Source: an uncultured bacterium (GTDB taxonomy: Bacteria > Abyssobacteria > SURF-5). Taken from it: a DNA stretch of 64,000 nt. The DNA lies in NCBI GenBank assembly GCA_964607485.1, contig CAZSKP010000001.1, forward strand, positions 32,001 through 96,000, written 5' to 3'. This document shows positions 6,617 through 44,017 of this stretch, in pieces. The position numbers were made by a program, and so were the translations under genes. A model generated the notes under the pieces. It was not told the origin of the DNA. It saw only the letters and a list, made by a program, of their open reading frames with translations, and ran no database searches. Each line of letters begins with the position of its first letter. Within the stretch, counting starts at the first letter, position 1.

Positions 6617-7684
6617 TCACAAACCGCGCGAGGAACTTGTGACCGGGCACATCGAGGCGCGGCCGCCGGGACCGCGGCCGGGCCGTCGGCCGATGGATTG
6701 AATCCGTTGGCGCAAGCCTGAGTGGGATTCGGATCCCGTCTCCCTGATGCACACCTTGCCCGGATAGACCTCATACTTCGCGCGATAGCTGAGCGGCGTC
6801 ATGTTTGGCATGATGACGTTGGCTCCCCGCCCGAGGCCGAGCTCGCGTCCGACGGCGGAGTTGACCGTCGCCAACGCCGTCGTGGCGGGGATGTTGGCTT
6901 CGGGACAGACGATGCGCGTGAGCGCGATCACCTTGTACGTCATCTCTTCCGTGTTGGGCGCCTGTTCGTTCTCAGGGATGGGCCGTCGCCATTCACCCGA
7001 GCCGACGGGCGTATCCGGGTGGGGAATGTAGGGGCCCACTCCGACCATGTCGAGGTCGAGCTTCCGGAAGAGGTCGATGTCGTCGGCGAGGCCGGCAAAC
7101 GTCTGTCCGGGGATGCCGATCATGACACCGCCTCCGATTTCGTAGCCCATCTCCCTTAGTCTTAGCAACGCAGCCAGGCGGTCCGACACCCTTCCCGGAA
7201 GCGACGGATGGATTAACCGATAGAGGTCGGGGTCGGAGGTCTCAAACCGGAGAAGGTACCTGTCGGCCCCGGCCCGCCGCCAGGCCTGCAGGTCTTTGTC
7301 GGGACGCTCTCCCATGCTCAGCGTGACGGCCAGCCGGGTCTCGGCCTTTATGCGGCGAATGACGGCGGCAAGCCAACCGGTTCCGATACCGTAGTCTTCG
7401 CCCGACTGGAGGACGACCGTGCCGTAGCCGTATCCCACGGCTGCACGGACGCACGTCATGATCTCGCCCTCTGTCATTCGGTAGCGTTCGACCTTCTTGT
7501 TGTCACGCCGCAGGCCGCAATAGCCGCACTGCCGCACACAGTGGTTGGAGATCTCAATCAGGCCGCGCAGGTGCACCTCGTCGCCGACGGTTTCGCGCCT
7601 CACCCCGTCGGCCCAGCGCCAGAGCTGCGCAAGGCGTTCTTCGTCCTCTTCCCGCAGCCATGCGAGTATTTCGCTCCGGTTCAT
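6617..7684 (-). CDS. hydE: [FeFe]-hydrogenase maturase HydE (radical SAM)
   Basis: LRGLIEISNHCVRQCGYCGLR, ADRYLLRFET, NIPATTALAT, GANVIMPN, YEVYPGK; ATG at 7684 overlaps the hydF stop (ATGA). Confidence 0.93.
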   Translation of the reverse strand: MNRSEILAWLREEDEERLAQLWRWADGVRRETVGDEVHLRGLIEISNHCVRQCGYCGLRRDNKKVERYRMTEGEIMTCVRAAVGYGYGTVVLQSGEDYGIGTGWLAAVIRRIKAETRLAVTLSMGERPDKDLQAWRRAGADRYLLRFETSDPDLYRLIHPSLPGRVSDRLAALLRLREMGYEIGGGVMIGIPGQTFAGLADDIDLFRKLDLDMVGVGPYIPHPDTPVGSGEWRRPIPENEQAPNTEEMTYKVIALTRIVCPEANIPATTALATVNSAVGRELGLGRGANVIMPNMTPLSYRAKYEVYPGKVCIRETGSESHSGLRQRIQSIGRRPGRGPGGRASMCPVTSSSRGL

Positions 7685-8922
7685 TGTTGCTGCCTTTTCA
7701 CTTCCCGATACACTTCCAGCGCGGCCGGGAACGGATCGAGCGCGCGCTCGAGGATGCCGAGTGAGTAGGCTATCGCCAGTCCATAATTGGTTATCGGCGC
7801 CTTCGCCTGGCGGCATCGCAGCAGCCGCGTCAGCATCTCGCGCCGGTTCAGCATGCAGGCGCCGCAGTGGACGATGAGATTGTAGCGCGAGATGTCGTCG
7901 GGGAAGTCGTGTCCCTGAATGGTGTCGAACTCCAGTTTTCCGCCCACGTATTGAGTCAGCCAGCGGGGAATTTTCACGCGGCCGATGTCCTCGGCTATCG
8001 GATGATGCGAGCATGCCTCGCAAATCAATATGCGGTCTCCCGGCTTCAGTCGTTCGACGGCCAATGTCCCCATAACCTGTTGTACAAGGTCGCCCTTGAA
8101 ACGTGCGTAGAGAATCGAGAACGAAGTCAACTTGATTTCGCGCGGGGTGTCGGCGGCCACTTTCAGAAACACCTGTGAATCGGTCACCACGAGTTTTGGG
8201 GGACGCTTCTGTCGTTCCAGCGCGTCGCGCAGCTCGCGCTCCTTGACAACCATGCAATAGGCGTCGCTATCCAGCAGGTCGCGGATTGCCTGAACCTGAG
8301 GCAGAATCAGCCGTCCTTTTGGCGCCTCCTTGTCAATGGGAACCACAAGCACCGCCATCTCTCCCGCGCCAACCAGGTCACCGAGGATTATCGGGTTGTT
8401 GATAAATTCCGCAGGAGCCGTATCGAGCAACGCCCGACGAAAATCCAGTATTCCCATGTTCAGAGTGGCAGCGGTTCTTACGACGGGGATTTTCCGCGAT
8501 TGCAGCCGTTCAACGACTCCGCCGTTCGGCTGAGCGAGGTCAATCTTGTTAAGGACCACTATGCTCGGGATTTTCTGGTTGGCGAGCTCATCCAGCAGTC
8601 GTTCCTCGAAGGTTCCCCATTTGCGGGCCTCGCACACGACGACGCCGAGGTCTGTACGGTCAAACACCTGGCGCGTTCTCTTGACACGAAGCTCGCCGAG
8701 TGCGCCTTCGTCGTCTATTCCCGCGGTGTCGATGAACAGCACAGGCCCCAGCGGCAGAAGCTCCATAGGTTTCTCGACCGGGTCGGTCGTGGTGCCCGCC
8801 TGCTCGGACACAATGGAGACCTGCTGTCGCGTTATCGCGTTGAGCAGGCTCGACTTTCCGACGTTGCGGCGGCCAAACAGCCCGATGTGGAGTCGGAGTC
8901 CTTTTGGAGCGCGTTCACCCAT
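7681..8922 (-). CDS. hydF: [FeFe]-hydrogenase maturation GTPase HydF
   Basis: GRRNVGKSS, GTTTDPV, DTAG, NKID, APKGRLILPQVQ, EACSHH...HCGAC Fe-S motif. Confidence 0.96.
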   Translation of the reverse strand: MGERAPKGLRLHIGLFGRRNVGKSSLLNAITRQQVSIVSEQAGTTTDPVEKPMELLPLGPVLFIDTAGIDDEGALGELRVKRTRQVFDRTDLGVVVCEARKWGTFEERLLDELANQKIPSIVVLNKIDLAQPNGGVVERLQSRKIPVVRTAATLNMGILDFRRALLDTAPAEFINNPIILGDLVGAGEMAVLVVPIDKEAPKGRLILPQVQAIRDLLDSDAYCMVVKERELRDALERQKRPPKLVVTDSQVFLKVAADTPREIKLTSFSILYARFKGDLVQQVMGTLAVERLKPGDRILICEACSHHPIAEDIGRVKIPRWLTQYVGGKLEFDTIQGHDFPDDISRYNLIVHCGACMLNRREMLTRLLRCRQAKAPITNYGLAIAYSLGILERALDPFPAALEVYREVKRQQQ

Positions 8923-10342
8923 TGTTTCCCCTTTTCGGCGCACCGGGCGAACCGAGGCGGCAAACGGCTTCCGGGCTCACCAATTCGTCAAATTTTTCGG
9001 CAGTGAGCAGTCCCTCGGCGATGGCCGTTTCCTTGATGCTCCTGCCGGTTTCATCGGCCAACTTCACGAGACGGCAAGCGCCCTCGTAACCGATTGCCCG
9101 TAGTAACGCCGTTGCCGTAGCGGTCGAACTTTCCACGTGTCCGCGGCAACGCTCTTCATCGGCCTCGATGCCCTCGACGCAGAGGCGCCTCAGGATATCG
9201 CAGCCGCGAGCGAGCAGCGTGCAGCTCTCCAACAGGCAGTTGGCAATGAGAGGGAGAAAGGGATTGAGCTCCAAGTTGCCCGACGCTGCGGCCAGGGCAA
9301 TCGTCTGGTCGTATCCCATTACCAACATGGCCAACTGCGAGACCGCCTCGGGGATCACCGGATTGACTTTGCCGGGCATGATCGAAGAGCCCGCCTGTCG
9401 CGACGGCAGACGAATCTCGCCGAACCCCGCTTCCGGCCCCGAAGCCAGCAGGCGAAGGTCCGTGCAGACCTTCAGGAGAGATGTCGCGCAGGCTTTCAAA
9501 ATGCCCGAAACCTCGACGAACACGTCGGCGTTCTGCGTTGCTTCGACCATGTTCTCGGCTCGGGCCAGACCGATTCCGGTCAGTTCGCGCAGGGTGTCCA
9601 CTACGCGAAAGATAAATTGGCGAGGCGAGGTGATGCCCGTGCCGATGGCGGTGCCGCCAAGATTGACCACGCGCAGCCGTTCTTCGCACTTATAGATGCG
9701 CCATCTGTCGCGGCTGAACGCTTCGGCATAGGCACTCATCTCCCGCCCCAATGTGGTGAGGACGGCGTCCTGCAATTCGGTGCGACCGACCTTCACAATA
9801 TGAGCGAACTGCTTCTCTTTGGACTGAAACGCTTCCTGTAGTGAAACCACCCGGTCTTCGAGTTCGCGGAGCAGTCGAATCGACGCCACCCTTAATGCAG
9901 TCGGATAGGTGTCGTTGGTGGATTGGTGCAGGTTGATATCGTCGAGCGGGGAAACGCAGTCGTAGTTGCCCGGAGTTTCTCCCAGAATCGCCAGAGCGCG
10001 GTTCGCCAGCACCTCATTCACATTCATATTGGTCGAGGTCCCGGCACCACCTTGCAGGCAGTCCACAATGATGAAGTCGTTCAACAAGCCATCCGCCATT
10101 TCCTTGCAGGCGCGTTCTATTGCGTCGGCCTTGGCTTCATCCTTCCAGACGCCCAACGCCCGGTTTGTCATGGCACAGGCGAGCTTCACGCTGCCGTAGG
10201 CGCGCACCAACTCCGGATGCACCCGTCGCCCGGCGAGGGGGAAGTTTTCGACAGACCTGGCGGTGTGGATACCGTGCAGGGAATCGGCCGGCAGACGCAC
10301 CTCACCGATTAGGTCGTGCTCGGAACGGTACCGTTCACTCAT
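8915..10342 (-). CDS. aspA: Aspartate ammonia-lyase
   Basis: GGAGTSTNMNVNEV, QSTNDTYPTA, GRTELQDA, GSSIMPGKVNP; start ATG 10342 (MSERYRSEHDLIG). Confidence 0.9.
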   Translation of the reverse strand: MSERYRSEHDLIGEVRLPADSLHGIHTARSVENFPLAGRRVHPELVRAYGSVKLACAMTNRALGVWKDEAKADAIERACKEMADGLLNDFIIVDCLQGGAGTSTNMNVNEVLANRALAILGETPGNYDCVSPLDDINLHQSTNDTYPTALRVASIRLLRELEDRVVSLQEAFQSKEKQFAHIVKVGRTELQDAVLTTLGREMSAYAEAFSRDRWRIYKCEERLRVVNLGGTAIGTGITSPRQFIFRVVDTLRELTGIGLARAENMVEATQNADVFVEVSGILKACATSLLKVCTDLRLLASGPEAGFGEIRLPSRQAGSSIMPGKVNPVIPEAVSQLAMLVMGYDQTIALAAASGNLELNPFLPLIANCLLESCTLLARGCDILRRLCVEGIEADEERCRGHVESSTATATALLRAIGYEGACRLVKLADETGRSIKETAIAEGLLTAEKFDELVSPEAVCRLGSPGAPKRGNNG

Positions 10343-10434
10343 GGTCGTCTCTTTGACAGCGGTGTCTGTTCTACAGACTTTAGCCGCCGTCCGTCGTCTC
10401 AGTGCAGCCAATGCAACTCCTCACCGACGCGTCC

Positions 10435-11733: not shown

Positions 11734-12193
11734 GATTCATCCTCGCGAATCCTGAAGCGCGCCGCAGCCGTGGGTCATTTCCCGTGCGAATCCTCCCCGT
11801 GAGCCTTCTCGCAGGACCGCCGGCGTGCGGCGCTTCGCCGGGTCCCCTCGTCTGCTTTTCTCGTGACTCCAGCCGATCGGATATGAGCCGGTTGAGAAAC
11901 TCGACCAGCCTGGCGCGGTCGGCCTCGGCCAGCCGCTCCCAGGAATCCGAAACCAGTCCGATGTTGTTTTGCAATTCGATTCGCTCGACGCCGCCCCTCG
12001 GCGGGTGTTCCGGCATCTGGCCCGCCAGGTAGGACCAGCGTCGCCCGAATATCTCGACGAACCACAGCCTGAGATCAAAGCGCTCTTGTGCACGCAGGGC
12101 AAGCCTGCCAAGCGAATCGGCGAGCGAGCGCCCCTTGGTCTCACCCGCAACGATTCGGAGCCAGTCGTCAAACCCTGAGGTCTCTCTCTCCAT
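11618..12193 (-). CDS. Hypothetical protein; only the first ~110 aa look protein-like
   Basis: Start overlaps the hydG 3' end; globular-looking core (LWFVEIFGRRWSYLAG). The Arg/Gly-rich tail overlaps the porin gene, so the 3' boundary is doubtful. Confidence 0.55.
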   Translation of the reverse strand: MERETSGFDDWLRIVAGETKGRSLADSLGRLALRAQERFDLRLWFVEIFGRRWSYLAGQMPEHPPRGGVERIELQNNIGLVSDSWERLAEADRARLVEFLNRLISDRLESREKQTRGPGEAPHAGGPARRLTGRIRTGNDPRLRRASGFARMNHEKTTHIRAGCDGAAIRERVGTGEPECGRNGEAETREC

Positions 12194-13634
12194 TCTCGAT
12201 TGCCTTCAGCATTTGCCCGAGGGCGAGCCGCATCGCTTCCGGGACATCGCCCATTCTGCGCTCAATCAATTTCTCGCCGACCTTCCTCGTTTCCTCCGAG
12301 GCGTAGTCGAGCAGGTATTCCTTGAACGTCAGGATGGCGTTCGGTATGCAGAACTGGTGAACCTTGCCGGCCTTGGCGATTTTCATGAAATAGCTTCCGG
12401 TTCTGCCACACCGGTAGCCCGCCGTGCAGAACGAGGTGAGGTAGCCCATGTCGGCGATTTCGCGGACGACTTCGTCGAGGCCCCTTGTGTCGCCGAGCAT
12501 GAACTGCTGCCGCTCCGCCTCCTGTATTCCCGTGGCCTCGCTGTAGGCGCCGATGCCTATCTTCGTGGAAGCGTCGGTCTGGGTGCAGCCAACGTTGAGC
12601 ACGTCGCGCCTGATATGCGCCGGCTCCCTGGCCGTGAGGATCATGCCTGTATAAGGCACAGAGAGTCTAATGACGGCGACCAGTCGCTTGAAATCCCTGT
12701 CGCTCACCTTGTGGGGCGAATTTTCGCAAATCGGCGCGTTCGCCGCCGGTTCGAGCCTTGGGAACGAGATGGTGTGAGGGCCGATTCCGTCGAACCTCTT
12801 TTCGAGGTCGATGGCGTGATACAGGAGGCCAAGCACCTCGAATTTCCAGTCATACAGCCCGAAGAGCGCGCCTATCGCCACGTCGTCCACCCCGGCGTCA
12901 AGCGCCCTGTGGAGCGCATAGAGACGCCATCGGTAATTCGACTTGCTCCCTCGCGGGTGCATCTTCTTGTACGTCTCATGGTGGTAAGTTTCCTGAAAGA
13001 CCTGGAACGTTCCGATTCCCACGTCGCGGAGAAGCTTCAGGTTGGCGACGGTTTGGGGCGCGGCGTTTATGTTGACGCGCCTGATCTCGCCGTTGCCTAC
13101 CCTGGTTTCGTAGACGGCGCGGATGGTATCGGCGATGTAGTTCACGTCGCTTGCAGGGTGCTCACCATACACCATGATCAGCCTCTTGTGGCCGAGCGAG
13201 ACCAATGCCTTCGTTTCCCTGCGGACCTCGTCGATGGTCAGTTTGCGCCTCTTTTCGGCCGTGTTTTCTCTCCGGAAGCCGCAGTATAGGCACGAGTTGA
13301 CACACAAGTTGCTGCAGTAGAGGGGTGCGAACGTGACGATGCGGGGGCCGTACACCTTCAGCTTGACGCTGAGCGCGGTTTCAAACATCTCTTCCCACAG
13401 GCCCTCGTCTTCGACGTTGAGCAGCGCCGCGGTCTCGCGCGGTTCGAGCCTCTGCAGCGCGAGCGAACGGTCGAGGATGTCGCGAATCCTTTCCCGCTCG
13501 GGTTTTCTGTTCTCTTCTATGAGTCGTTCGATTTCCGCGTCGTCGATGAAATCCTCGCCGCCCTTAAGGTACCGGGTGATCTCATCGTCGTGCACCACCG
13601 AATCGACCCATTTTTCAACTGCCAAGGACTGCAT
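12168..13634 (-). CDS. hydG: [FeFe]-hydrogenase maturase HydG (radical SAM tyrosine lyase)
   Basis: FAPLYCSNLCVNSCLYCGF, GTFQVFQETYH, GPHTISFPR, C-terminal FCTAGYRC...FCIPNA auxiliary-cluster motif, GERDL end. Confidence 0.96.
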   Translation of the reverse strand: MQSLAVEKWVDSVVHDDEITRYLKGGEDFIDDAEIERLIEENRKPERERIRDILDRSLALQRLEPRETAALLNVEDEGLWEEMFETALSVKLKVYGPRIVTFAPLYCSNLCVNSCLYCGFRRENTAEKRRKLTIDEVRRETKALVSLGHKRLIMVYGEHPASDVNYIADTIRAVYETRVGNGEIRRVNINAAPQTVANLKLLRDVGIGTFQVFQETYHHETYKKMHPRGSKSNYRWRLYALHRALDAGVDDVAIGALFGLYDWKFEVLGLLYHAIDLEKRFDGIGPHTISFPRLEPAANAPICENSPHKVSDRDFKRLVAVIRLSVPYTGMILTAREPAHIRRDVLNVGCTQTDASTKIGIGAYSEATGIQEAERQQFMLGDTRGLDEVVREIADMGYLTSFCTAGYRCGRTGSYFMKIAKAGKVHQFCIPNAILTFKEYLLDYASEETRKVGEKLIERRMGDVPEAMRLALGQMLKAIENGERDLRV

Positions 13635-15540
13635 CTTTCATATCCTCTTTGGGTATCGCCTTGAGATCAACGATGAAAATACTTCCAAGCCCCTCCTCGC
13701 TCTCTGCAAGGATTCGCCCACCGTGCCGTTCGACGATTTCCTTGACAATGGCGAGGCCGAGGCCGGTGCCGTGCTCCTCGACCTTGCGGGCGTTCTCGGC
13801 CCGGAAGAACTCCGAGAACAGCCGCGACATATCGCCCTTGGGAATTCCGATGCCGTTGTCCCTGACCTCGATGCGTACCATGTCATTGGCCGCGCGGGAG
13901 AAGGCGACCCGCACGGTTCCGCCCTCGGGCGTATATTTGACGGCGTTGGAGACGAGATTCTCGAGCATCTGCTCGATCGTCTCGAAGTCGCCCCATATAT
14001 CCGGGACGTCGTCGGGCAGGGTGATTTCAAAGGTAAGCCCCTTCCTCGCGGCTCCGTCCTGGAAGGTGCGGCGTATGCGGCGGGTGAGCACGGAGAGGTC
14101 CACGCGTCCGTGGGCGGCCTCCCGTTTCTCGGCCCGCTCGGTGGCCAGCGTCATGAGTTCATTGATAATCGAGAGCATCGTTCGAGCCCTGCGGTCGACG
14201 CGACGCAGGTATTCGTTCTGTTCGGCGGTGAGACTGCCGTGGTATCCCCCGCGGACGACCTCCAGGATGCTGAGGATGGCCGACAGGGGGGCGCGCAGGT
14301 TATGCGCGACCCGCATCATGAACCACGAGCGGTCCTGCACCATGCGCTCGATGGCCTCATACGCGCGCGCGTTTTCGATTGCGATGGCCACGAGTCCCGC
14401 GGCCAGTTGGAAGAACTCCATCTCCTCTCTGTCGAACCGGTCAGCGAGATTGCAGTAAGCGCCCAGGATGCCGATGACCTTGTCCTCGATCGCCAGGGGC
14501 ACAAACAGGACCGATTGCAGGTTCGCCGCGGCGAGGTCTTCGCCGAACTGAAACATCTCGCGCTCGGTCACCCGGCCGGTGACGAACGGCTCGCCCTCGA
14601 TGACTCTGCGGTTGAGTGGACTCTTCGCCACCTCCACGACCCTGCTCTTGATGAATTCGGCGGGGAGTCCGTGAGCCGCCGCGTATCGCAACTCCTTGCC
14701 GTCCTCGCTGAGGAGCTTGACCGAAATGGCCACTACGTCCATCACCTTGGCCAGCTCGGCGGCCATCGTGTTCAGCACTTCGTCGAGATGCTGACTCGAG
14801 AGGATGGCCTGGGTCACGACGTACAGGCTGTTGAGCTTGTTGTTGAGCTCCGTCAGCGCTTCGGTGACATCGGCGAGATTCACGATTCGCATCCGGAGCA
14901 TTCTCATGATGGCGGTCGTGGAGAAGGCTGTGATGAAGACCGACGTCGCGAAGAACGCGAGGCTCACAATTATGTGGAACGGCCGTTCCATCACGTTGAG
15001 GGAGTTTCCCCGGAACACGACGGGGTGCTGCGGCATCCAGCCTTCATATTCCGCCAGGGCGATCAGACACATGCCCGCCACGGCCAACGCGGAAAAACCA
15101 TAAGCCGACCGCGGCCTGAGCAGGATGGAGGCGAAGATGATGTGGAAGATGAAGAAGAATATGAACGGGCTCGCCGCGCCGCCGGTAAGATGGATGAGGA
15201 GAAACATGGCGACGTAGTCGAGACCCACCTGCCAGTAAGTGAAGCGCTGGATGTACGTGGGCTGCCAGCCCACCTCCTGTTGCACCCACACGCTCTGCAG
15301 GTAGAACACGACGTTGTAGGCGAAGATGAATGCGGCCACCGCCAGCAGCGGACCCGCGGCCAGCTCGACGCCGATCAATCTGGCGACGCCTACTCCCGCC
15401 ACGATGCTGGGCGGCACCCACCACCGCAGCCGCACGAACCAGAGGGTTCGGTCCCTCAGTTCACCCAGGATGACTCGCTTGCGCTTGTCGATTTCGTCGT
15501 GGACGTTCTGGAGGGCAGTCTGTTTCACCTCACTGGTCAT
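13615..15540 (-). CDS. Membrane sensor histidine kinase with GAF domain
   Basis: About 5-6 hydrophobic helices, GAF (VPLAIEDKVIGIL...AIAIENARAY), H-box AHNLRAPL, NLVSNAVKY, DNGIGI, GTGLGL. Confidence 0.92.
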   Translation of the reverse strand: MTSEVKQTALQNVHDEIDKRKRVILGELRDRTLWFVRLRWWVPPSIVAGVGVARLIGVELAAGPLLAVAAFIFAYNVVFYLQSVWVQQEVGWQPTYIQRFTYWQVGLDYVAMFLLIHLTGGAASPFIFFFIFHIIFASILLRPRSAYGFSALAVAGMCLIALAEYEGWMPQHPVVFRGNSLNVMERPFHIIVSLAFFATSVFITAFSTTAIMRMLRMRIVNLADVTEALTELNNKLNSLYVVTQAILSSQHLDEVLNTMAAELAKVMDVVAISVKLLSEDGKELRYAAAHGLPAEFIKSRVVEVAKSPLNRRVIEGEPFVTGRVTEREMFQFGEDLAAANLQSVLFVPLAIEDKVIGILGAYCNLADRFDREEMEFFQLAAGLVAIAIENARAYEAIERMVQDRSWFMMRVAHNLRAPLSAILSILEVVRGGYHGSLTAEQNEYLRRVDRRARTMLSIINELMTLATERAEKREAAHGRVDLSVLTRRIRRTFQDGAARKGLTFEITLPDDVPDIWGDFETIEQMLENLVSNAVKYTPEGGTVRVAFSRAANDMVRIEVRDNGIGIPKGDMSRLFSEFFRAENARKVEEHGTGLGLAIVKEIVERHGGRILAESEEGLGSIFIVDLKAIPKEDMKDAVLGS

Positions 15541-15568: not shown

Positions 15569-15976
15569 TCAGGCTCTGGTCAAAATGCCCCTTATCTTGT
15601 CAAGAAGCTTCTTGCTGTCGACAGGCTTTTCGAACATCCACTTGGCCGGCCATTCTTCTCCGAGGATATGCTGAAATTTTTCCGGCCCCTCGCTCCGGAC
15701 CCTCTCGAGGAAACTGGTCAGAATGATGATGGGAAGGTTTGCGAATTCGGGCTTGCTTTTCAGCTCATAGGCCAGGTCGAAACCTTCGGTGTCGGTAGCC
15801 ATCATAATGTCCAGGATCATCAGGTCGGGCATCTTGGCCTTCAGCTCGGAGAGGGCCTCGCGCCCGTTTGCCGCGGTGCGGACGCTGAAGCCGTTGCTCT
15901 CCAAAATGATCCCGATGGAATCTCGGATGTCCCGGTCGTCATCTACCAGGAGAATTTCGCCTTCGCTCGCCATCAT
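15569..15976 (-). CDS. Single-domain response regulator
   Basis: ILLVDDD, ILDIMM, IILTS, FEKP. Confidence 0.92.
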   Translation of the reverse strand: MMASEGEILLVDDDRDIRDSIGIILESNGFSVRTAANGREALSELKAKMPDLMILDIMMATDTEGFDLAYELKSKPEFANLPIIILTSFLERVRSEGPEKFQHILGEEWPAKWMFEKPVDSKKLLDKIRGILTRA

Positions 15977-16011: not shown

Positions 16012-17739
16012 TCAGACGCCTCGCTCGACATAGTGGGTGTGAAGCAGTTTATGCGACGTTTCGCCCAGGGGCTCCTCAAGGAATTTTTCATAGAGTTCCT
16101 TGATAGCGGGGTTTTCGTGAGATTGCCGGTACTCTTGTATTCCGCCGTCGTCGTGGTAGAGGGCTTTCGCGCGAAGAACCCGCTTCTCATTGCTGACGGG
16201 CAGCGGCTGCCCGCCGCCGCCGACACAGCCTCCGGGACACGCCATCACTTCGATGAAGTGGTAGTCGGCGGTGCCGTTCACCACCTTGTCGAGAATCTTT
16301 TTTGCGTTGGCCAGACCATGAGTCACCGCCACGCGAACCTGCCCCAGTTCGCCTACTTCGATGGCGGCCTCCTTGACTCCATCGAGTCCCCGGACGGGCA
16401 TGATGTCGAGGCTGGGCATGTTCCCGCCGGTGACGACCGCGTACACGGTCCTGAGCGCCGCCTCCATGACGCCGCCCGTGGCTCCGAATATCGTGCCCGC
16501 GCCCGTGTACTGGCCCATGGGCGGGTCGTACGTTTCCTCGGGGAGGTTCACGAAGTCGATTCCCGCCTGCCGTATCATGCGGCCGAGCTCGCGCGTGGTC
16601 AGCACGGCGTCGACGTCGCGGTGGCCGGACGAACACATCTCGGGCCTGGAGGCCTCGTACTTCTTCGCCGTACACGGCATGACGGAGACGACGAAGATGT
16701 CTGCCGGGTCGATGCCGGCGAACCGGGCGTAATAGGTCTTCGCCAGGGCGCCGAACATCTGCTGGGGCGATTTGCACGTGCTCAAGTGAGGCAGAAGCGA
16801 GGGGTAATAGTGTTCGATGAACTTAATCCAGCCGGGACTGCACGAGGTAATCATCGGCAGTTTTCCGCCGGTCCTTGCCCGCTTCAGCAGCTCGTGCCCT
16901 TCCTCTATGATCGTGAGGTCCGCGGCGAAATTGGTGTCGAACACCCTGTCGAACCCCAAACGCCGGAGCGCCGCGATCATCTTGCCGGTCACCAGCGTGC
17001 CCGGCGGCATGTCGAACTCTTCGCCCAGCGTGGCGCGGATGGCGGGCGCCTCCTGGACGACGACGTGCTTGCGCGGGTCCTCGAGGGCGGCCACGACTTT
17101 GTCCACGTCGTCGCGCTCGATGATGGCGCCGGTGGGGCACACGACGGCACACTGGCCGCAGAAGGTGCAGGCCGAATCGGCCAGGTTGGCGCTCATCGCC
17201 GGCACAACTTTCGAATCGAAACCGCGGCCCTCGGGCGTGAGCAGGCTTACGCCCTGAACTTCGGCGCAGACGGTCACGCAGCGCAGGCAGTTGATGCACT
17301 TGGAGGCGTCACGGATGAGCGAGGGCGAAGAGTCGTCGACCCGATGGGTCGTGAAGTCGGTGCGAGGCACTCGGATCGTGCGCACGCCCACCAACTCCGC
17401 AACCGCCTCGAGTTCGCAGTGTCCGTGTTTCTGGCAGATGGTGCAATCCTGCGGGTGGTCGGAGAGCAGGAGCTCGACGACGGCCCGCCGACCCCGGCGT
17501 ACTCGTTCGGAGTTGGTCTTGACCTTCATCCCTTCAGCCACCGGATAGACGCAGCTTGCCACCAGCGTGCGGCTCCTCTCGACTTCCACGACGCACACGC
17601 GACATGCGCCGGGCGTATGGTTCAGCTCCGGCAGCGCGCAGAGCGTGGGAATGCGGATACCCACCTCCCGTGCCGCCTCCAAGATGGTCGTGCCTTCGGG
17701 AACCTGCACCTCTCGATTGTCGATTGTCAAGGTAACCAT
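16012..17739 (-). CDS. hydA: [FeFe]-hydrogenase catalytic subunit (group A, multimeric type)
   Basis: N-terminal [2Fe-2S], His-ligated [4Fe-4S] (HPQDCTIC..C) and 2x[4Fe-4S]; H-cluster motifs ITSCSPGW, MPCTAKKYE, EVMACPGGCVGGGGQP; fused small-subunit tail (SHENP...LHTHY). Confidence 0.96.
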   Translation of the reverse strand: MVTLTIDNREVQVPEGTTILEAAREVGIRIPTLCALPELNHTPGACRVCVVEVERSRTLVASCVYPVAEGMKVKTNSERVRRGRRAVVELLLSDHPQDCTICQKHGHCELEAVAELVGVRTIRVPRTDFTTHRVDDSSPSLIRDASKCINCLRCVTVCAEVQGVSLLTPEGRGFDSKVVPAMSANLADSACTFCGQCAVVCPTGAIIERDDVDKVVAALEDPRKHVVVQEAPAIRATLGEEFDMPPGTLVTGKMIAALRRLGFDRVFDTNFAADLTIIEEGHELLKRARTGGKLPMITSCSPGWIKFIEHYYPSLLPHLSTCKSPQQMFGALAKTYYARFAGIDPADIFVVSVMPCTAKKYEASRPEMCSSGHRDVDAVLTTRELGRMIRQAGIDFVNLPEETYDPPMGQYTGAGTIFGATGGVMEAALRTVYAVVTGGNMPSLDIMPVRGLDGVKEAAIEVGELGQVRVAVTHGLANAKKILDKVVNGTADYHFIEVMACPGGCVGGGGQPLPVSNEKRVLRAKALYHDDGGIQEYRQSHENPAIKELYEKFLEEPLGETSHKLLHTHYVERGV

Positions 17740-17773: not shown

Positions 17774-20700
17774 TCATTCGACCTTTGCGTCACAGCGCAT
17801 GCACCGACGCGCTTCGGCCAGTGCGGTTTGTCGAGTGTAGCCAAGCTCCACTTCCCGAAAATCTTTTCGCCGCTCGGATGCGGCTGTTTCAGGCATCGGG
17901 GCCTGCGGCTGTTCCACGGGCTCCTCGTCAACTTCGAAAGGAATGTCGATGGTGTCATCGGCTGGAGACACCCACGGTTTCTCTCCGTTTTCCGCTCGGA
18001 TAGCGGCGTCGATCTGCCGGGCCGCATCCTGGCCCGCCCTGATCGCGTCGATGACCATCGCGGGGCCGGTGACCGCGTCGCCTCCGGCCCAGACCTTGGC
18101 ATTGGCGGTCCGCTGTCCGCTCTGGACCTTTATGGCGGACCGAGTCGTCTCCACGCCGCTATGATCCTGCAGGAAATTCAGGTCCGCCATTTGGCCGATG
18201 GCGGCGATGACGGTGTCCACCTGTGTGGTGAACTCCGAGCCGGGTATCGGTTCGGGCCGCCTGCGCCCGCTGCGGTCGAACTGGCCGAGCTTCATCCGGG
18301 TGAGTTCGAGGCCCGACACCTTCCCGTTTCCGGTTATCACTTTTGAAGGCGCCACGAGGAGTTCGATCTTTACTCCCTCCTCCTCTGCGGCGCGAATCTC
18401 CGCTTCCTCGGCGGGCATGTCGTTCCGCTGGCGGCGGTAGTAGATGGTCACCTCTTCGGCGCCCATCCGAACGGCGGTTCGGGCGGAGTCGATGGCGGAG
18501 TTGCCGCCGCCGATGACGGCGACGCGCTTGCCGATATTGATCTCCTGGTCCAAGTTGTGGGACCTGAGCATCTCAACCGCCCCGAACACGCCCTCGGCCT
18601 CCTCACCGGGAACGTTCAGCGCATAGCTCTTCTGAGCTCCGACCGCCAGGTAGATAATGTCGAATTCTCTGTCCAGTTCTTCGAAACTCACATCGCGTCC
18701 GACGCGCGTGTTGGTGCGAAGCTCCACGCCGGTGTCGAGGATGTCCTTAATCTCGCGGTCGAGCACCTCACGGGGGAGACGATACATTGGAATCCCCCAT
18801 CGGAGCATGCCGCCCGCCTGAGGCAATTCTTCAAACACGGTCACAGCGTAGCCGCGCCTCTTGAGTTCGAGCGCGGCGGTCAGACCCGATGGGCCAGCGC
18901 CGATGACCGCCACCCGCTCCTTGCGGGTCACGGGAATAGGCTCGACCTTCGGCTTCATCGCGTTGTCGGCGACGAATCGTTTGATGAACTTGATCGCCAA
19001 TGGCTCGTCGAGCTGTCCGCGGCGGCATTTCGACTGGCACGGATGCCCGCACACGCGGCCGCACACGCTGGGGAACGGATTCGTGCGCGTGAGCACTTGA
19101 TAGGCGTCGTCGATGCGGTCGGCGCGAACGAGCGCGATGTAGGCGGGGATGTCCATCTCCACCGGGCAGGTGTGCTGGCACGAACTCTTGAACAACGCCG
19201 AGCAGACCGCAGCCGGACAATGTTTTTCATGGATGTGCGCCTCGTATTCGTCGCGGAAATAGCGGATGGTGCTGAGCACGGGGTTGGGCGCGGTTTGGCC
19301 GAGGCCGCAGAGCGCCGTATCCTTGATGCTCTGAGCCAGGTCCTGGAGGAGCTCTATGTCTCCCTCGCGTCCCTGGCCGTTGCATATTCTCTGGAGGATC
19401 TCCAGCATCCTCTTTGTTCCCACGCGACACGGCGTGCATTTGCCGCACGACTCGTCCTGGCAGAAGTCCATGAAGTAGCGGGCCATGTCCACCATGCAGT
19501 TGTCTTCGTCCATCACGATCATGCCGCCGGAGCCCATAATGGCGCCCGCCTTGGCGATGGCCTCGTAGTCGGTAGGAGTGTTCAGGTGTTCGGCGGGTAT
19601 GCATCCTCCCGATGGGCCGCCAAGCTGGGCCGCCTTGAACTTCTTTCCTCCGGGGATGCCGCCGCCGATGTCGAAGATAATCTCTCCGATGGAGGTGCCC
19701 ATGGGCACTTCCACGAGGCCGGTATTGTACACCTTACCCGTGAGCGAGAATATCTTTGTGCCCTTGGATGACTCGGTCCCGATTTTCTCGTACTCTTCTC
19801 CGCCCTCAAGGATGATGTGAGGAGTATTGGAGAACGTCTCGACGTTGTTGAGAATGGTGGGCTTCTTCCACAGTCCGGAGACAGCCGGAAACGGCGGCCG
19901 GGGCCGGGGCATGCCGCGGCGACCCTCGATGGAGGTCATCAGAGCCGTCTCCTCGCCGCAGACGAATGCGCCCGCGCCCTGGTACACTTCCACGTCGAAA
20001 TGGAACCCGGAGCCGAGGATGTCTCTGCCCAGCAGGCCGTGCTCTCTGGCCTGGCCGATGGCTGTATTGAGCCTTTGCACTGCCAAGGGGTACTCGGCAC
20101 GACAGTAGATGTATCCCTTGTGTGAGTTGATCGCCTTTGCGGCTATGATCATGCCCTCTAGCACGGAATGCGGGTTGCCTTCCATGACGCTGCGGTCCAT
20201 GAACGCACCCGGGTCACCCTCATCCGCGTTGCAGAGAACATACTTGACGTTTTCCTTTGAGTGAGCGCAGAACTCCCACTTGAGTCCCGTGGGGAATCCC
20301 GCGCCGCCCCGGCCGCGCAGCCCGGAGACCTTCACCTCGGCGATGATTTCGGCCCATGTCATGCTGAGCAGCGCCTTGGCCGCCGCGCGGTAGCCGTCTC
20401 GCCAGATGTAGTCTTCGATCTTCTCGGGATCGATCAATCCCTTGTTTCGAAGGACCCAGAGCCGTTGGTTTGCGAAGAAAGGGATCTCATCTATATAGGG
20501 GATCACCTTGCCGGAAACCGGGTCGGAGTAAAGCAATCGTTCCACCGGTCGCCCATTCAGAAAATGTTCTTCCACTAACTCTGGTATGTCAGCCGGTGTC
20601 AGCTTCTGATAGAAAATCCTCTCCGGCAGGACAGTCATCACCGGACCGGCACTGCACAGGCCGATGCAGCCGGTCGCGACTATCCGGACTTCTTGCGCAA

Positions 20701-20872
20701 TCCCGCGCTTTTCAACTTCATTGGCCAAGACGCTCGAAACGGGCTTGCCCCCACAGGCAATACAGCCCGTGTCGCCACACAGCATGGCGTGTATGCGAAA
20801 TCTTGCCCTTTCCTTCGCTACCCGTTCGCGAATTGCTTCTAAATCGGCTGCTTTGAGCTTTTCTTGAGCCAT
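17774..20872 (-). CDS. hydB: HydB/NuoF-like NADH/FMN subunit fused to a C-terminal GltD/NfnB-like FAD/Fe-S oxidoreductase
   Basis: Thioredoxin-like [2Fe-2S] N-terminus; GRGGAGFPTG, NADEGDPGAFMDR, GEETAL, GGPSGG, ESCGKCTPCR; then CQHTCP, CGRVCGHPCQSKC, IGAGPSG, GGMLRWGIP, IGGGNSAID...YYRR, GGDAVTGP, ARRCMRC. Confidence 0.9.
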   Translation of the reverse strand: MAQEKLKAADLEAIRERVAKERARFRIHAMLCGDTGCIACGGKPVSSVLANEVEKRGIAQEVRIVATGCIGLCSAGPVMTVLPERIFYQKLTPADIPELVEEHFLNGRPVERLLYSDPVSGKVIPYIDEIPFFANQRLWVLRNKGLIDPEKIEDYIWRDGYRAAAKALLSMTWAEIIAEVKVSGLRGRGGAGFPTGLKWEFCAHSKENVKYVLCNADEGDPGAFMDRSVMEGNPHSVLEGMIIAAKAINSHKGYIYCRAEYPLAVQRLNTAIGQAREHGLLGRDILGSGFHFDVEVYQGAGAFVCGEETALMTSIEGRRGMPRPRPPFPAVSGLWKKPTILNNVETFSNTPHIILEGGEEYEKIGTESSKGTKIFSLTGKVYNTGLVEVPMGTSIGEIIFDIGGGIPGGKKFKAAQLGGPSGGCIPAEHLNTPTDYEAIAKAGAIMGSGGMIVMDEDNCMVDMARYFMDFCQDESCGKCTPCRVGTKRMLEILQRICNGQGREGDIELLQDLAQSIKDTALCGLGQTAPNPVLSTIRYFRDEYEAHIHEKHCPAAVCSALFKSSCQHTCPVEMDIPAYIALVRADRIDDAYQVLTRTNPFPSVCGRVCGHPCQSKCRRGQLDEPLAIKFIKRFVADNAMKPKVEPIPVTRKERVAVIGAGPSGLTAALELKRRGYAVTVFEELPQAGGMLRWGIPMYRLPREVLDREIKDILDTGVELRTNTRVGRDVSFEELDREFDIIYLAVGAQKSYALNVPGEEAEGVFGAVEMLRSHNLDQEINIGKRVAVIGGGNSAIDSARTAVRMGAEEVTIYYRRQRNDMPAEEAEIRAAEEEGVKIELLVAPSKVITGNGKVSGLELTRMKLGQFDRSGRRRPEPIPGSEFTTQVDTVIAAIGQMADLNFLQDHSGVETTRSAIKVQSGQRTANAKVWAGGDAVTGPAMVIDAIRAGQDAARQIDAAIRAENGEKPWVSPADDTIDIPFEVDEEPVEQPQAPMPETAASERRKDFREVELGYTRQTALAEARRCMRCDAKVE

Positions 20873-20877
20873 GACTT

Positions 20878-21408
20878 CTACTCCTTTGGGTTCGGAGAGC
20901 TGTCTCGATATTCCTTCAATATACTGTCGAGCTTGGCCACCTTCACCTGCCTATGGGTATGCCCATCGACGACCATTACGGGTGAGAGCCCGCACGCTCC
21001 GACGCAGCGAACCGTGTCGAGGCTGAAATTTCTGTCCTCCGTGCACTCGCCGGGCTCGATTCCCAATTTATGCTCGAGCTCGTCGAGCACTCTGTTGGAA
21101 CCCCGCACGTGACAAGCCGTGCCGAGGCACACGCGCACCTGATGCTTGCCGCGGGGGGTCATCGTGAAGAAGGAGTAGAACGTCACCACTCCGTACACCT
21201 GGCTCAGAGGCAACGAGAGCCCCTTCGCGACCCGACGCTGGACCGATTCCGGCAGATACCCGGTAATATTCTGAACTTCCTCCAGCACCGGAATCAGGGC
21301 GCCGGGCTTGTCGCGGTGACTCGCTATCACCTCATCGACCTTCCTCCACTGTTCCTCAGTGAATTCGTTTTCGGACTTCTTCTCATTGCACACGCATCGA
21401 AGGCTCAT
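20878..21408 (-). CDS. hydC: HydC/NuoE-like [2Fe-2S] subunit
   Basis: VYGVVTFYSFF, VCLGTACHVRG, VRCVGACGLSP; ATG 21408 with AGGAGA RBS. Confidence 0.93.
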   Translation of the reverse strand: MSLRCVCNEKKSENEFTEEQWRKVDEVIASHRDKPGALIPVLEEVQNITGYLPESVQRRVAKGLSLPLSQVYGVVTFYSFFTMTPRGKHQVRVCLGTACHVRGSNRVLDELEHKLGIEPGECTEDRNFSLDTVRCVGACGLSPVMVVDGHTHRQVKVAKLDSILKEYRDSSPNPKE

Positions 21409-21530
21409 ATCGTTTCTCCTTGTGTCAGCGACGGGAAAAGCGCTGCATCGCCCCTTCAAGGAATGCGCTCAATTCGCGCCGGACATCTTTATCGATAGTC
21501 ACTCAGACCCACTTCTCTCTCTTCCTAACG

Positions 21531-23069: not shown

Positions 23070-25067
23070 GTGGTTATGCAGAAGGAAAAAGGCATTACCT
23101 CGATGATGGATGAGCAGAGGAAGTTTCCCCCACCCGAGGATTTTCGAAAGAAGGCAAAGATCAAGTCCGTCGAGGAATACGAGGCGCTGTACAAGGAATC
23201 GCTCGAACACCCTGATAGTTTCTGGGGCAGACTGGCCGAGGAACTGGACTGGATCAAGAAGTGGGACCGGGTGTATTACTGGGATCCCAAGAAGGTTGAA
23301 TGCAGATGGTTCGAGGGAGGGAAGCTGAACGTTTCCTACAACTGCCTCGACCGTCATTTGAAGACGCCGATAAGAGACAAGGTCGCGATCATCTGGGAAG
23401 GCGAGCCGATGGGCGAGAGCCGGTCTTACACGTATCAGCAACTCCATCGCGAGGTGTGCCGGTTCGCGAACGTCCTCAAGAAGAAAGGGATCAAGAAGGG
23501 CGACCGCGTCTGCATCTACCTGCCGATGATTCCGGAACTCCCCATCGCAATGCTTGCCTGCGCCCGGATCGGCGCCATCCACAGCGTCGTCTTCGGCGGG
23601 TTCAGCGCGGAATCGCTGCGCGACCGAATCCAGGACAGCGGGGCGAGGATGCTGATTACTGTGAATGCCGGCTACCGGAACGGTCGTGTGATCGATCTCA
23701 AGAAGAACGCCGACGAGGCGGTCGAAAAGTGTCCCGTGGTCGAACACGTCATCTTGGTGCGACGGGTCGAGAAGGATGTGCCGATGAACCCCGAACGGGA
23801 GAGCTGGTGGCACGATGAAATGAGCGCTCCCGACATCAAGGACGAGTGCGAGCCCGAGGCGATGGATGCGGAGGATCCGCTGTTCATCCTGTACACAAGC
23901 GGCAGCACGGGAAAACCCAAAGGGGTGCTCCACACGACCGCCGGCTACCTCGTGTACACCTCGCAGACGTTCAAGTACATCTTCGACTATCGCGACGAAG
24001 ACATCTTCTGGTGCACGGCGGATATCGGATGGGTCACGGGGCACAGCTACATCGTTTACGGCCCGCTGTGCGAGGGCGCGACGAGCCTGATGTATGAAGG
24101 CGTCCCGTTCTATCCGGAGAAGGATCGGTTCTGGGCGATAGTCGAAAAATACAAGGTCAACATCTTCTACACCGCCCCCACCGCCATCCGCGCAATCGCA
24201 CGAGAGGGCGACGAGTGGCCGAAAAAGCACGACCTCTCCAGCCTTCGACTGCTCGGCACGGTCGGCGAACCGATCAACCCGGAGGCGTGGATGTGGTATT
24301 ACACTAACATCGGCAAGGAGGAGTGTCCCATCGTGGACACGTGGTGGCAGACCGAAACCGGCGGCATCCTCATCACGCCGCTTCCGGGGGCGTTCACCCT
24401 CAAGCCTGCCTCCGCGAACAAGCCGTTCTTCGGCGTGGAACCGGCCGTCATTCGCGAGGACGGTTCCGAGGCGCGGCCCAACGAAGGCGGGTACCTGGTA
24501 ATCAAGAGGCCCTGGCCGGGCATGATGCGCACGGTCTATGGCGACCCCAAGCGGTTCAAGGAAACCTACTTCACCCTGTACCCGGGAATCTATTTCACCG
24601 GCGACGGCGCGAGGAAGGACGAAGACGGCGACTACTGGCTGATGGGACGCATCGACGACGTTATCAACGTCTCCGGACACCGGCTCGGAACCGCTGAAAT
24701 CGAGAGCGCGCTCGTGGCGGACCCCGCGGTTTCCGAGGCGGCGGTTGTGCCGATTCCGCATGAAATCAAGGGTCAGGGCATATACGCCTTCGTCATCCTG
24801 AAGGCGGGTGTGGAGCCTTCCGAGGAAATGAAGAAGAAGCTCATCGCCCACGTAAGAAAAGAGATCGGGCCCATCGCGACGCCCGATGAAATGCAATTCG
24901 CCGACGCCCTCCCCAAGACGAGGAGCGGCAAGATCATGAGGAGAATCCTCCGGAAGATTGCGGAAGGAAGCGAGCAGCTTGGCGACACCACGACCCTGGC
25001 AGACACCGGCGTGGTCGAGAGCCTGCTTCAAGGAAAGAAAGAAGCCGGCTCGACGGCCGAGAAATGA
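23070..25067 (+). CDS. acs: Acetyl-CoA synthetase (AMP-forming)
   Basis: [50 protein letters not shown]. Confidence 0.96.
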
Positions 25068-25295
25068 TGCGGGTCCGGGGGACGGGCGGCGTCAGGCTCG
25101 TCGATTTTTCGCGGTCCACGGACCCGACACCTCATGAGCCTTCGGTGGCACACCACCCCTGCCGCCCTTCTCTCTCGCGAGCCCAGAGGGCGAGGGTCTG
25201 CGGGAGCATGCCCCCCATACGCTCCCGCAGGCCCGATGCTCGCCGCCTTCCGTTCGCACACTGCCGCGGCGCCATCTGCCCGCGAGGAGGCAATC

Positions 25296-26537: not shown

Positions 26538-26603
26538 CTTGACACCCGTGGGGCGACTTGGTGTATTCTGAATCGGGAGGTTGATTCTCAACAATCCTGA
26601 GCG

Positions 26604-30796: not shown

Positions 30797-30888
30797 CATA
30801 GTATCTTCCGTAACTGCAAAGGCGGGAGATGAAACGTCAAGGACCCCCGAACCCGTCGAGCGAGAGAGGAGAGGACGCGAAGGTTCCC

Positions 30889-32619: not shown

Positions 32620-32620
32620 C

Positions 32621-34687: not shown

Positions 34688-34709
34688 GGAAGCTGGAGGA
34701 AATCGAACA

Positions 34710-35201: not shown

Positions 35202-35205
35202 CGCC

Positions 35206-37385: not shown

Positions 37386-37406
37386 GAACGGGGGAGTAAG
37401 GGACAC

Positions 37407-39589: not shown

Positions 39590-39623
39590 CCCTGGTCCGT
39601 GTGGCGCCATCGGAGTGTAACCA

Positions 39624-43932: not shown

Positions 43933-44017
43933 TGAACCACGGACGCCTCAGGCTCGACCGGCATGGCGTGTCCGACCGTTTCTTGATCGGCCTTTGGCCA
44001 AGAGAGAGGAGCCAACC

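Follow-up and report, generated by a model that had tools for sequence, protein, structure and literature searches.

The 64,000-nucleotide (nt) stretch analysed here (the window: positions 32,001 to 96,000 of contig CAZSKP010000001.1, assembly GCA_964607485.1, from an uncultured bacterium of the Abyssobacteria) encodes at 17774..20872, on the minus strand, a hydB/bfuB gene fused to a GltD/NfnB-like module. To judge from its sequence, the product is the beta subunit of a HydABC/BfuABC-type enzyme, in which the ferredoxin tail carrying the iron-sulfur clusters B3 and B4 has been swapped for an NADP(H):iron-sulfur oxidoreductase module. The fused HydB is a real and well-conserved feature that falls within a BfuB variant already described; its mechanism is predicted. 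Coordinates below are those of the window, and all parts of the fused HydB and all hyd genes lie on the minus strand.

The open reading frame (ORF) encodes 1032 amino acids (aa) from an ATG start without an internal stop, and its domain order was established with Pfam, NCBIfam, alignments to PDB chains and an AlphaFold2 model (mean predicted local distance difference test 90.3, predicted template-modelling score (pTM) 0.88). Pfam confidently identified, above the curated cut-offs, 2Fe-2S_thioredx (aa 26–102), Complex1_51K (aa 180–350, 164.7 bits), NADH_4Fe-4S (aa 462–546, 130.4 bits), Fer4_20 (aa 552–640) and Pyr_redox_2 (aa 653–947); an SLBB stretch (aa 375–423) was matched below the cut-off, and no ferredoxin-type Fer4 dicluster domain was found by Pfam at E<=0.01. 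All motifs named in the initial annotation of this stretch were recovered from the translated ORF: GDPGAFMDR (aa 219–227, nt 20192–20218), GGPSGG (aa 418–423, nt 19604–19621), the His/Cys metal site HIHEKHCPAAVC (aa 546–557, nt 19202–19237), GGGNSAID (aa 788–795, nt 18488–18511) and YYRR (aa 811–814, nt 18431–18442). Its central proposal, that the ferredoxin-like 2x[4Fe-4S] tail is exchanged for a complete GltD/NfnB-like module, is borne out by both Pfam and the PDB-chain alignments; only the start of the module has to be moved from about nt 19190 to nt 19184/19183 (residue 563/564), where the alignments place the switch from HydB-like to GltD-like sequence. Chance is ruled out, as each half fits its own family at E<=1e-23 and many other genomes have the whole architecture as well.

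The first half of the protein is a HydB of the bifurcating type. Residues 23–563 align to the BfuB/HydB chains of five solved bifurcating enzymes with scores from 792 bits (A. mobile 7t2r_B) to 645 bits (T. maritima 7p5h_B), with A. woodii 7q4v_B, StnB 8oh5_B and T. kivui 8a6t_B in between, and the alignments end at residues 561–565; for 7t2r_B, 7q4v_B, 8oh5_B and 7p5h_B the E-values are <=1e-192, and the TIGR01959 model covers aa 149–547 with 509 bits. The N-terminus is a thioredoxin-like [2Fe-2S] domain (aa 26–102, 20567..20797; PF01257, 28.3 bits against a cut-off of 24.8), which contains C32, C37, C69 and C73 as well as an extra C40; from the C-x4-C...C-x3-C spacing of this fold we take the first four to be the cluster ligands. 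It is followed by the NuoF core (aa 139–552, 19217..20458), comprising the NADH/flavin mononucleotide (FMN) site, the SLBB domain with GGPSGG and a helical bundle with the [4Fe-4S] cluster N3/B1 (C476, C479, C482, C522). The core ends in a hinge metal site (aa 546–557, 19202..19237), made up of H546, C552, C557 and probably C471, which are kept in 33, 33, 32 and 27, respectively, of the 33 fused homologues over which the conservation of residues was counted. The hinge site of T. maritima HydB is reported as a zinc site with three Cys and one His (PMC9499530); H546, C552 and C557 appear to be the HydB hinge site and not ligands of a Fer4_20 cluster.

Losey et al. (2020; PMC7311640) describe bifurcating beta subunits by Ala/Glu and Met at positions equivalent to T. 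maritima HydB 232 and 234, GGPSG in the SLBB region, Phe for Tyr at T. maritima HydB 367 and extra clusters. The fused HydB exhibits A223-F224-M225 and G418-G-P-S-G422, retained in 26–33 of the 33 homologues, so that the use of AFM and GGPSG as markers of a bifurcating HydB in the initial annotation agrees with two of these characters. The mapping of position 367 is uncertain: an offset of 9 leads to G358, while other candidates are F303, the residue of the GAGA(F/Y) motif (28/33), and F375 (29/33). Since GGPSGG occurs in 79 of the 80 BfuB ORFs fetched, fused and unfused, the AFM and GGPSG residues mark the BfuB clade rather than the type of tail. From the cofactor set that defines the BfuB subunits of the Bfu family (PMC9304861, PMC11406978), the fused HydB has the FMN/NAD(H) domain with B1, the N-terminal [2Fe-2S] domain and the adjoining BfuC and BfuA, and it lacks the C-terminal B3/B4 ferredoxin-like domain.

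The second half (aa 564–1028) shows the greatest similarity to the modules of Nfn-Bfu enzymes (Csac NfnA 9bov_A, residues 103–567: 434 bits; Tsib NfnA: 383 bits; StnC 8oh5_C: 360 bits), followed by the classical NfnB (4ylf_B: 336 bits) and NfnL (5jca_L: 317 bits). It comprises a Fer4_20-type domain (aa 564–640, 18953..19183; PF14691, 82.4 bits) with C565, C569, C604, C608, C612, C616 and K631, flavin adenine dinucleotide (FAD) and NAD(P)H Rossmann domains (aa 653–961, 17990..18916; Pyr_redox_2, 113.5 bits) with GAGPSG (aa 658–663), R698, GGGNSAID and Y812-R813-R814, and a C-terminal segment (aa 990–1028, 17789..17905; FREVELGY...RRCMRC) with C1024 and C1027. This last segment corresponds to a permuted N-terminal piece of Fer4_20: it aligns to residues 5–43 of T. 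maritima NfnB (4ylf_B) and 8–47 of P. furiosus NfnL (5jca_L), and Pfam gives a separate Fer4_20 match (profile positions 1–30) at the C-terminus of the fused HydB, yet it runs colinear with 9bov_A and 8oh5_C, in order up to residue 567. The module therefore departs from the canonical GltD/NfnB order, in which the CxxC piece stands ahead of the flavin domains, and is of the circularly permuted Stn type, with the CxxC piece at the C-terminus as in StnC/NfnA. With the permutation the cysteine count closes: eight residues (C565, C569, C604, C608, C612, C616, C1024, C1027), kept in 31–33 of the 33 fused homologues (C1024 and C1027 in all 33), are available for two [4Fe-4S] clusters, C1024 and C1027 would complete the Fer4_20 clusters, and H546, C552 and C557 (with C471) are left for the hinge site.

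K631 aligns with K170 of StnC/NfnA, described as an unusual Lys next to the FAD-proximal cluster, in contrast to the Glu of NfnB (PMC10482914); the residue is Glu in 4ylf_B and Lys in 29/33 fused homologues. C604, in contrast, is Cys as in NfnB and in 31/33 homologues, and Ile in StnC and Csac NfnA. R698 aligns with R201 of NfnB and R239 of StnC and is kept, together with the glycines of the nucleotide folds, in 30–33 of the 33 homologues. In the AlphaFold2 model the second Rossmann fold runs through beta1 (aa 783–787), a helix (aa 791–802) and beta2 (aa 807–812), directly followed by R813 and R814, which belong to the basic YRR pointed out in the initial annotation; Y812, R813 and R814 are found in 31, 30 and 33 of the 33 homologues. 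Rossmann folds of the NADH type carry an acidic residue at the position after beta2 and those of the NADPH type a basic one. YRR is also common to 9bov_A, 9n5u_A, 8oh5_C, 4ylf_B and 5jca_L, called NADP(H) enzymes in the respective papers and PDB titles. Thus, a preference for NADP(H) is predicted from the alignment and the general Rossmann rule. In the nearest solved relatives NADPH is oxidised at a non-bifurcating FAD and single electrons leave via two clusters (PMC10482914, PMC11829005): the StnC FAD is reported to be non-bifurcating and its pocket to bind NADPH (PMC10482914), and the equivalent FAD of Csac NfnABC terminates a linear chain (PMC11829005). By score, permutation and K631, the module resembles this non-bifurcating NADPH/FAD module of Nfn-Bfu enzymes more than classical NfnB.

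The fusion is widespread. Among the matches listed in a search of a 5.8-billion-protein database, 119 of the 119 other homologues are 951–1207 aa long, with 89–100% query coverage and 65–81% identity, and the source names include Abyssobacteria (closest, 77–81%), Poribacteria, Spirochaetota, Syntrophales, Desulfobacterales and Desulfotomaculum. At the level of 50%-identity clusters, 9 of the 150 listed representatives have a single continuous alignment that begins ahead of residue 150 and extends past residue 1027, with identity down to 36%. A scan limited to a single genome per species gave 80 loci, and 43 of them encode the HydB-like and GltD-like halves without a break in a single frame. 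A 220-residue junction probe found full-length matches in frames of at least 1000 aa in 9 of 41 genomes, the source genome included (in one further genome the match is broken by a contig end), and an orthologue with 84–89% identity across the junction is present in 5 of 9 genomes of the same family. The initial annotation had allowed that reads might expose the fusion as an artefact; a 6,968-nt Logan contig of run X1 spans nt 18700–19530 of the window, and hence the junction, with zero differences. Run X1 is probably the source sample, and its contig is independent of the assembler, not of the sample. Runs X2–X4 (85% likeness) yielded short pieces with no single contig of a relative across the junction and are uninformative either way.

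The architecture itself is already in print: PMC11406978 (mSystems 2024) describes a 'sub-type I' BfuB of BfuABC [FeFe]-hydrogenases in Hydrogenedentota (195 clusters in that paper), with relatives in Spirochaetota, Planctomycetota, Verrucomicrobiota and Thermodesulfobacteriota. In domain content and in its bfuABC cluster the fused HydB corresponds to this definition: the B3/B4 domain is replaced by DPD_II (Fer4_20) and a C-terminal FAD/NAD(P) domain, the gene clusters with an M3a-type BfuA and BfuC, and the phyla of the relatives are those found here, while the bfuD gene of the sub-type I clusters is missing between hydB and hydC. The novelty that the initial annotation saw in the architecture was therefore overstated; it is also common, and it extends beyond hydrogenases. 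Whereas PMC11406978 treats the fusion as a hydrogenase feature and proposes, without experiments, that its FAD is a second bifurcation centre, we find formate dehydrogenase, NiFe hydrogenase, GltB-like and MTHFR partners and a module of the permuted StnC/NfnA type. Neither the permutation, nor the kinship with Stn, nor partners other than hydrogenases were mentioned in the available text of PMC11406978 or in the literature searched, which also yielded no biochemistry of the fused subunit in print; the HydB-GltD fusion was likewise absent from the available texts of PMC9304861 (where the terms GltD, NfnB and fusion do not appear) and PMC5861303. What is added here is the kinship of the module, the range of its partners, the repeated exchange of tails and the metabolic context in a near-complete genome.

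The fused HydB can be compared with several characterized systems. With the HydABC enzymes of T. maritima, A. woodii and T. kivui (7p5h, 7q4v, 8a6t) it shares HydC, the N-terminal [2Fe-2S] domain, the FMN/NAD site, B1, the hinge His/Cys residues, AFM and GGPSG, and its HydA is close to A. woodii HydA1; their C-terminal 2x[4Fe-4S] domain, the proposed ferredoxin site, is absent, and a GltD-like module of ~470 residues stands in its place. The Nfn-Bfu/Stn enzymes (S. ovata StnABC 8oh5, C. saccharolyticus NfnABC 9bov, T. sibiricus 9n5u) include the best structural relatives of residues 564–1028, with the same order of parts (flavin domains ahead of the CxxC piece), a Lys at the proximal cluster and YRR; however, there the module is inserted in the NuoG-like BfuA and delivers electrons from NADPH, while BfuB keeps B3/B4 and reduces ferredoxin. 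The fused HydB does not follow that arrangement: its module sits on BfuB in place of B3/B4, and its BfuA is a hydrogenase. NfnAB (T. maritima 4ylf, P. furiosus 5jca) and GltD (6s6s, 2vdc) also possess two [4Fe-4S] clusters, FAD and an NADPH fold with YRR, but they are unpermuted (N-terminal CxxC), have Glu at the proximal cluster, reach lower scores and work as separate subunits with NfnA or GltB. The B3/B4 ferredoxin-like clusters are likewise missing from the non-bifurcating, NADH-dependent HydAB(C) hydrogenases of S. aciditrophicus and S. wolfei (PMC7311640); their beta subunits, however, have Thr/Ser and Lys/Ser/Ala in place of Ala and Met, no GGPSG and no extra module (PMC7311640), whereas the fused HydB combines the bifurcating-type residues with a whole second flavin module. 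In terms of the HydDB classification (PMC5037454) it is a hybrid, with a GltD-like partner as in the 'glutamate synthase-linked' group A2 and a NuoF partner as in the 'bifurcating' group A3. The HydDB rule reserves A2 for cases with a GltD domain but no NuoF and assigns A3 wherever NuoF occurs (PMC5037454); such an enzyme, having both domains, would therefore be filed silently as A3.

Neither is the fused subunit confined to [FeFe]-hydrogenases. In the 43 loci its gene adjoins HydA (14), the formate dehydrogenase subunit FdhA (7), a small NuoG-like FeS protein (14), a contig end (6) or other genes (2, including locus L090 with MTHFR genes). Ten of the 14 loci with the small FeS protein were examined: the next gene encodes a Glu_synthase-domain protein in 5 and a NiFe large subunit in 2, one has a cut molybdopterin protein and 2 are unclear. 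The loci thus pair the fused subunit with formate dehydrogenase, NiFe hydrogenase, GltB-like and MTHFR genes. Five of them (L021, L031, L035, L040, L097) share the order NuoE, NuoF-GltD, NuoG-like FeS protein of ~230 aa and Glu_synthase-domain (GltB-like) protein of ~530 aa, and may encode a NuoF-linked glutamate-synthase-like enzyme; L097, a record of an Asgard archaeon, has an adjoining glutamate dehydrogenase gene. In L032, L068 and L075 the fused operon stands in tandem with a second NuoE-HydB-HydA set, in which the HydA-like match begins only 30–105 nt past the match to the HydB core, so that this second HydB seemingly has neither type of tail. Locus L055 exhibits a true Stn-like arrangement.

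A phylogenetic tree of the NuoF core suggests that the tails have been exchanged repeatedly. The tree is a quick LG+G4 calculation on 72 rows (fused: 36, unfused: 36), with the tail columns left out. It was built from the 80 loci less 10 that were cut or short, plus 2 rows from the source genome; as these loci had been selected for their similarity to fused proteins, the sampling is biased, and L027 and L047 are labelled GltB-type by analogy only. Fused and unfused proteins interleave, requiring 15 changes of state, at least 7 of which are forced by the starred branches, and a single fused clade is rejected by the approximately unbiased test (difference in log-likelihood 428, p 1e-39). Repeated exchange on closely related cores, as this tree implies, agrees with the idea that the one port takes the place of the other.

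The source genome (4.7 Mb, 97.5% complete) provides a redox context for the enzyme. A match to Fe_hyd_lg_C was found only in the HydA of this cluster, and the profile search of the 4.7 Mb gave no match to NiFeSe_Hases. A second operon on contig C4 (L015:7894-14612) encodes a NuoE-like protein of 189 aa, another NuoF-GltD fusion (L015:8414-11548, 1045 aa, 53% identical to the fused HydB over 1012 residues) and an FdhA of 982 aa (TIGR01591, 861 bits). The unusual subunit is thus common to the hydrogenase of this organism and its candidate formate enzyme. The other Complex1_51K frames of the genome encode 438, 438 and 519 aa, none of them of HydB length (~600 aa). On contig C64 (L016:1958-4054) a protein of 699 aa combines the C-terminal [4Fe-4S] domain of NuoF with the same permuted GltD-like module, without the FMN domain; its gene lies directly ahead of a NuoG-like gene and NuoK/NuoL-like genes (L016:1958-9000), an arrangement that resembles a complex-I-like operon equipped with a GltD-type input module. 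This type is present in 8 of the 9 genomes of the same family; for its precedent a one-sentence domain description of the NADP-dependent FdhB of M. thermoacetica in PMC5736913 serves as a lead only. The genome also contains an adjacent pair of NfnA-like and NfnB-like genes (NfnA-like genes were found only on contigs other than that of the hyd operon), Rnf genes and nine POR_N matches.

Our tentative preference, short of a firm expectation, is for an enzyme that couples H2 to NAD(H) and NADP(H) and has no ferredoxin port. The FMN site would bind NAD(H) and the FAD site NADP(H), with no site for ferredoxin, and the net reaction would be 2 H2 + NAD+ + NADP+ <-> NADH + NADPH + 2 H+. Both nucleotides would be coupled via the B1-FMN-C1 centre, with NADPH (about -380 mV in cells) as the low-potential partner in place of the reduced ferredoxin of ordinary HydABC. 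The organism would probably use the enzyme to produce H2 (and the paralogue to produce formate) from NADH and NADPH, while electrons of ferredoxin could reach NADPH via the NfnAB-like pair and NADH via Rnf. By our calculation, with E0'(H2) = -414 mV and the cellular potentials quoted in PMC9304861, the NADH and NADPH average of ~-330 mV would support H2 to ~150 Pa, compared with ~3 Pa for NADH alone. A bolder extension, which we consider possible but somewhat unlikely, is that the NuoF-GltD subunit serves the Bfu family as a general, interchangeable 'NADPH port', which makes ferredoxin-dependent bifurcating enzymes ferredoxin-free. Such a port would serve FeFe and NiFe hydrogenases, formate dehydrogenase, MTHFR and GltB-like reductases, all of which would con- or bifurcate electrons between two pyridine nucleotides with NADPH as the low-potential partner.

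Several points weigh against a ferredoxin-free coupling of the two nucleotides. The sole printed account of the architecture that we found, PMC11406978, is bioinformatic, the nucleotide preference at both sites is predicted from homology and the Rossmann-fold rule, and some GltD-like modules use NADH (PMC8097209). The GltB-like neighbour in five loci suggests that the module may act there as a docking or transfer unit and not as a nucleotide port. The 699-aa relative without the FMN domain hints that the module may be wired straight to a B1-type cluster, and the pTM of 0.88 of the model hints at a rigid packing of the module, unlike the mobile bridge of B3/B4.

The last two observations lead to the alternative that survives best, although we regard it as rather unlikely: the module would be wired directly to B1/N3, so that NADH (at FMN) and NADPH (at FAD) each exchange electrons with the H-cluster independently, and the enzyme would be a dual-cofactor, non-bifurcating NAD(P)H hydrogenase and possibly a ferredoxin-free transhydrogenase as well. 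In the 699-aa protein the B1-type cluster can hardly serve except as the link between module and chain, the cluster ligand C565 of the fused HydB lies just 8 residues past the hinge ligand C557, a fixed packing would suit such wiring, and the hydrogenases of S. wolfei and S. aciditrophicus, which lack B3/B4, are non-bifurcating in vitro (PMC7311640). On the other hand, an ungated enzyme would be expected to short-circuit the disequilibrium between cellular NADPH and NADH. Moreover, the fused HydB retains A223, M225 and GGPSG, seen by Losey et al. solely in bifurcating beta subunits (PMC7311640), along with the N-terminal [2Fe-2S] domain, the hinge site and HydC, features that non-bifurcating enzymes partly lack.

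The proposal of PMC11406978 that the module FAD bifurcates as in NfnB, beside the FMN-FeS site, with ferredoxin perhaps bound near the distal Fer4_20 cluster, appears improbable. The NfnB fold and all alignable residues of the FAD site, including R698, are present, and the NfnB-like C604, absent from StnC and Csac NfnA, is nearly invariant in the fused homologues; but the module is closer to the non-bifurcating StnC/NfnA both in score and in permutation, it has Lys instead of Glu at 631 (cf. PMC10482914), Pfam analysis of the neighbours revealed no gene for an NfnA-like [2Fe-2S]/FAD partner in the hyd operon, and the equivalent FAD of Csac NfnABC stands at the end of a linear chain (PMC11829005). 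There is also a small chance that the module chiefly serves as a docking site or electron link for a further redox partner, in the manner of GltD with GltB, and that its nucleotide site is secondary or unused in the hydrogenase. GltD-like modules are described as devices that pass electrons of NAD(P)H to a second protein (PMC8097209), and a Glu_synthase-domain gene stands beside the fused subunit in the five of ten small-FeS loci mentioned above; however, the same Pfam analysis found no GltB-like gene in the hyd operon, and the glycines of the nucleotide folds and Y812/R813/R814 are kept in 30–33 of the 33 homologues whatever the partner. That assembly or gene calling joined hydB to a separate gltD-like gene is practically impossible in view of the homologues, loci, orthologues and X1 contig described above.

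The remaining hyd genes surround the fused hydB. Its start is separated by 5 nt from the stop of hydC/bfuC (20878..21459), which encodes a NuoE-like thioredoxin-type [2Fe-2S] subunit (2Fe-2S_thioredx, 174.7 bits, aa 42–185, and NCBIfam HoxE/NuoE models) of 193 aa from a TTG start, the true start possibly being further in. On the other side lies hydA/bfuA (16012..17739), the catalytic subunit of a group A [FeFe]-hydrogenase (575 aa; Fe_hyd_lg_C, 340 bits; NF040763, 893 bits against a cut-off of 765), with the M3-type composition of 2Fe-2S, NuoG-type 4Fe-4S, 2x Fer4, H-domain and small-subunit domain. Its H-domain is nearest to 7qv7_D, 7q4v_A and 8a6t_A, and the NCBIfam model that names it reads 'NADH-dependent, group A6'. 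The motif TSCSPGW instead of TSCCP was considered as an oddity of the H-cluster and dropped, as A. woodii HydA1 has the identical motif. Between hydA and hydG (12168..13634; TIGR03955, 489.9 bits, cut-off 312) Pfam identified a response-regulator receiver protein (15569..15976, minus strand; Response_reg, 69.1 bits) and a membrane GAF-HisKA-HATPase histidine kinase (13615..15540, minus strand). The maturase GTPase hydF (7681..8943) matches TIGR03918 with 558 bits (cut-off 326) at G000:C1:39738-40910, i.e. window 7738-8910, and hydE (6617..7700) matches TIGR03956 with 306 bits over residues 188–524 of a 546-aa ORF; the first ~187 residues of that ORF (to 8257) overlap hydF and match nothing, so the start of hydE is probably near 7700. 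The row of maturase genes (6617-13634) is interrupted by genes for an aspartate ammonia-lyase (8915-10411, on the strand of the hyd genes), a DcaP-like outer-membrane protein (10435-11733) and a 191-aa ORF without a family match (11618-12193).

Upstream of the hyd cluster, the other strand (23070-30592) encodes an AMP-forming acetyl-CoA synthetase, a major facilitator superfamily transporter, an ADP-forming acyl-CoA synthetase (CoA_binding and ATP-grasp_5) and an acetyl-CoA hydrolase/transferase fused to a GNAT domain, a set that fits an acetate-centred fermentative metabolism. Further along the window, a receiver domain is fused to a Na_sulph_symp/CitMHS-type transporter (32621-34687, 688 aa), in a neighbourhood (30829-41471) with three dCache histidine kinases and another transporter of this type, and a 237-aa ORF with two DsrC-like stretches (43994-44707; PF04358, 152.6 bits) precedes the gene of a receiver protein.

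If the two nucleotide sites are uncoupled, the enzyme would be a dual-cofactor hydrogenase, a less fundamental but still useful result, e.g. for the regeneration of NADPH from H2. If they are coupled, it would carry out electron bifurcation without a need for ferredoxin and would constitute a natural experiment on the role of the B3/B4 branch in Bfu enzymes. The reading of genomes would then change, as rules of the HydDB style file such enzymes as ordinary ferredoxin/NAD bifurcating 'A3', and so would the H2 and formate thresholds predicted for fermenters and syntrophs of sediments. If, moreover, the NuoF-GltD subunit is a general NADPH port, fermenters and syntrophs could produce H2 and formate from NADH at a ~50-fold higher H2 pressure than with NADH alone.

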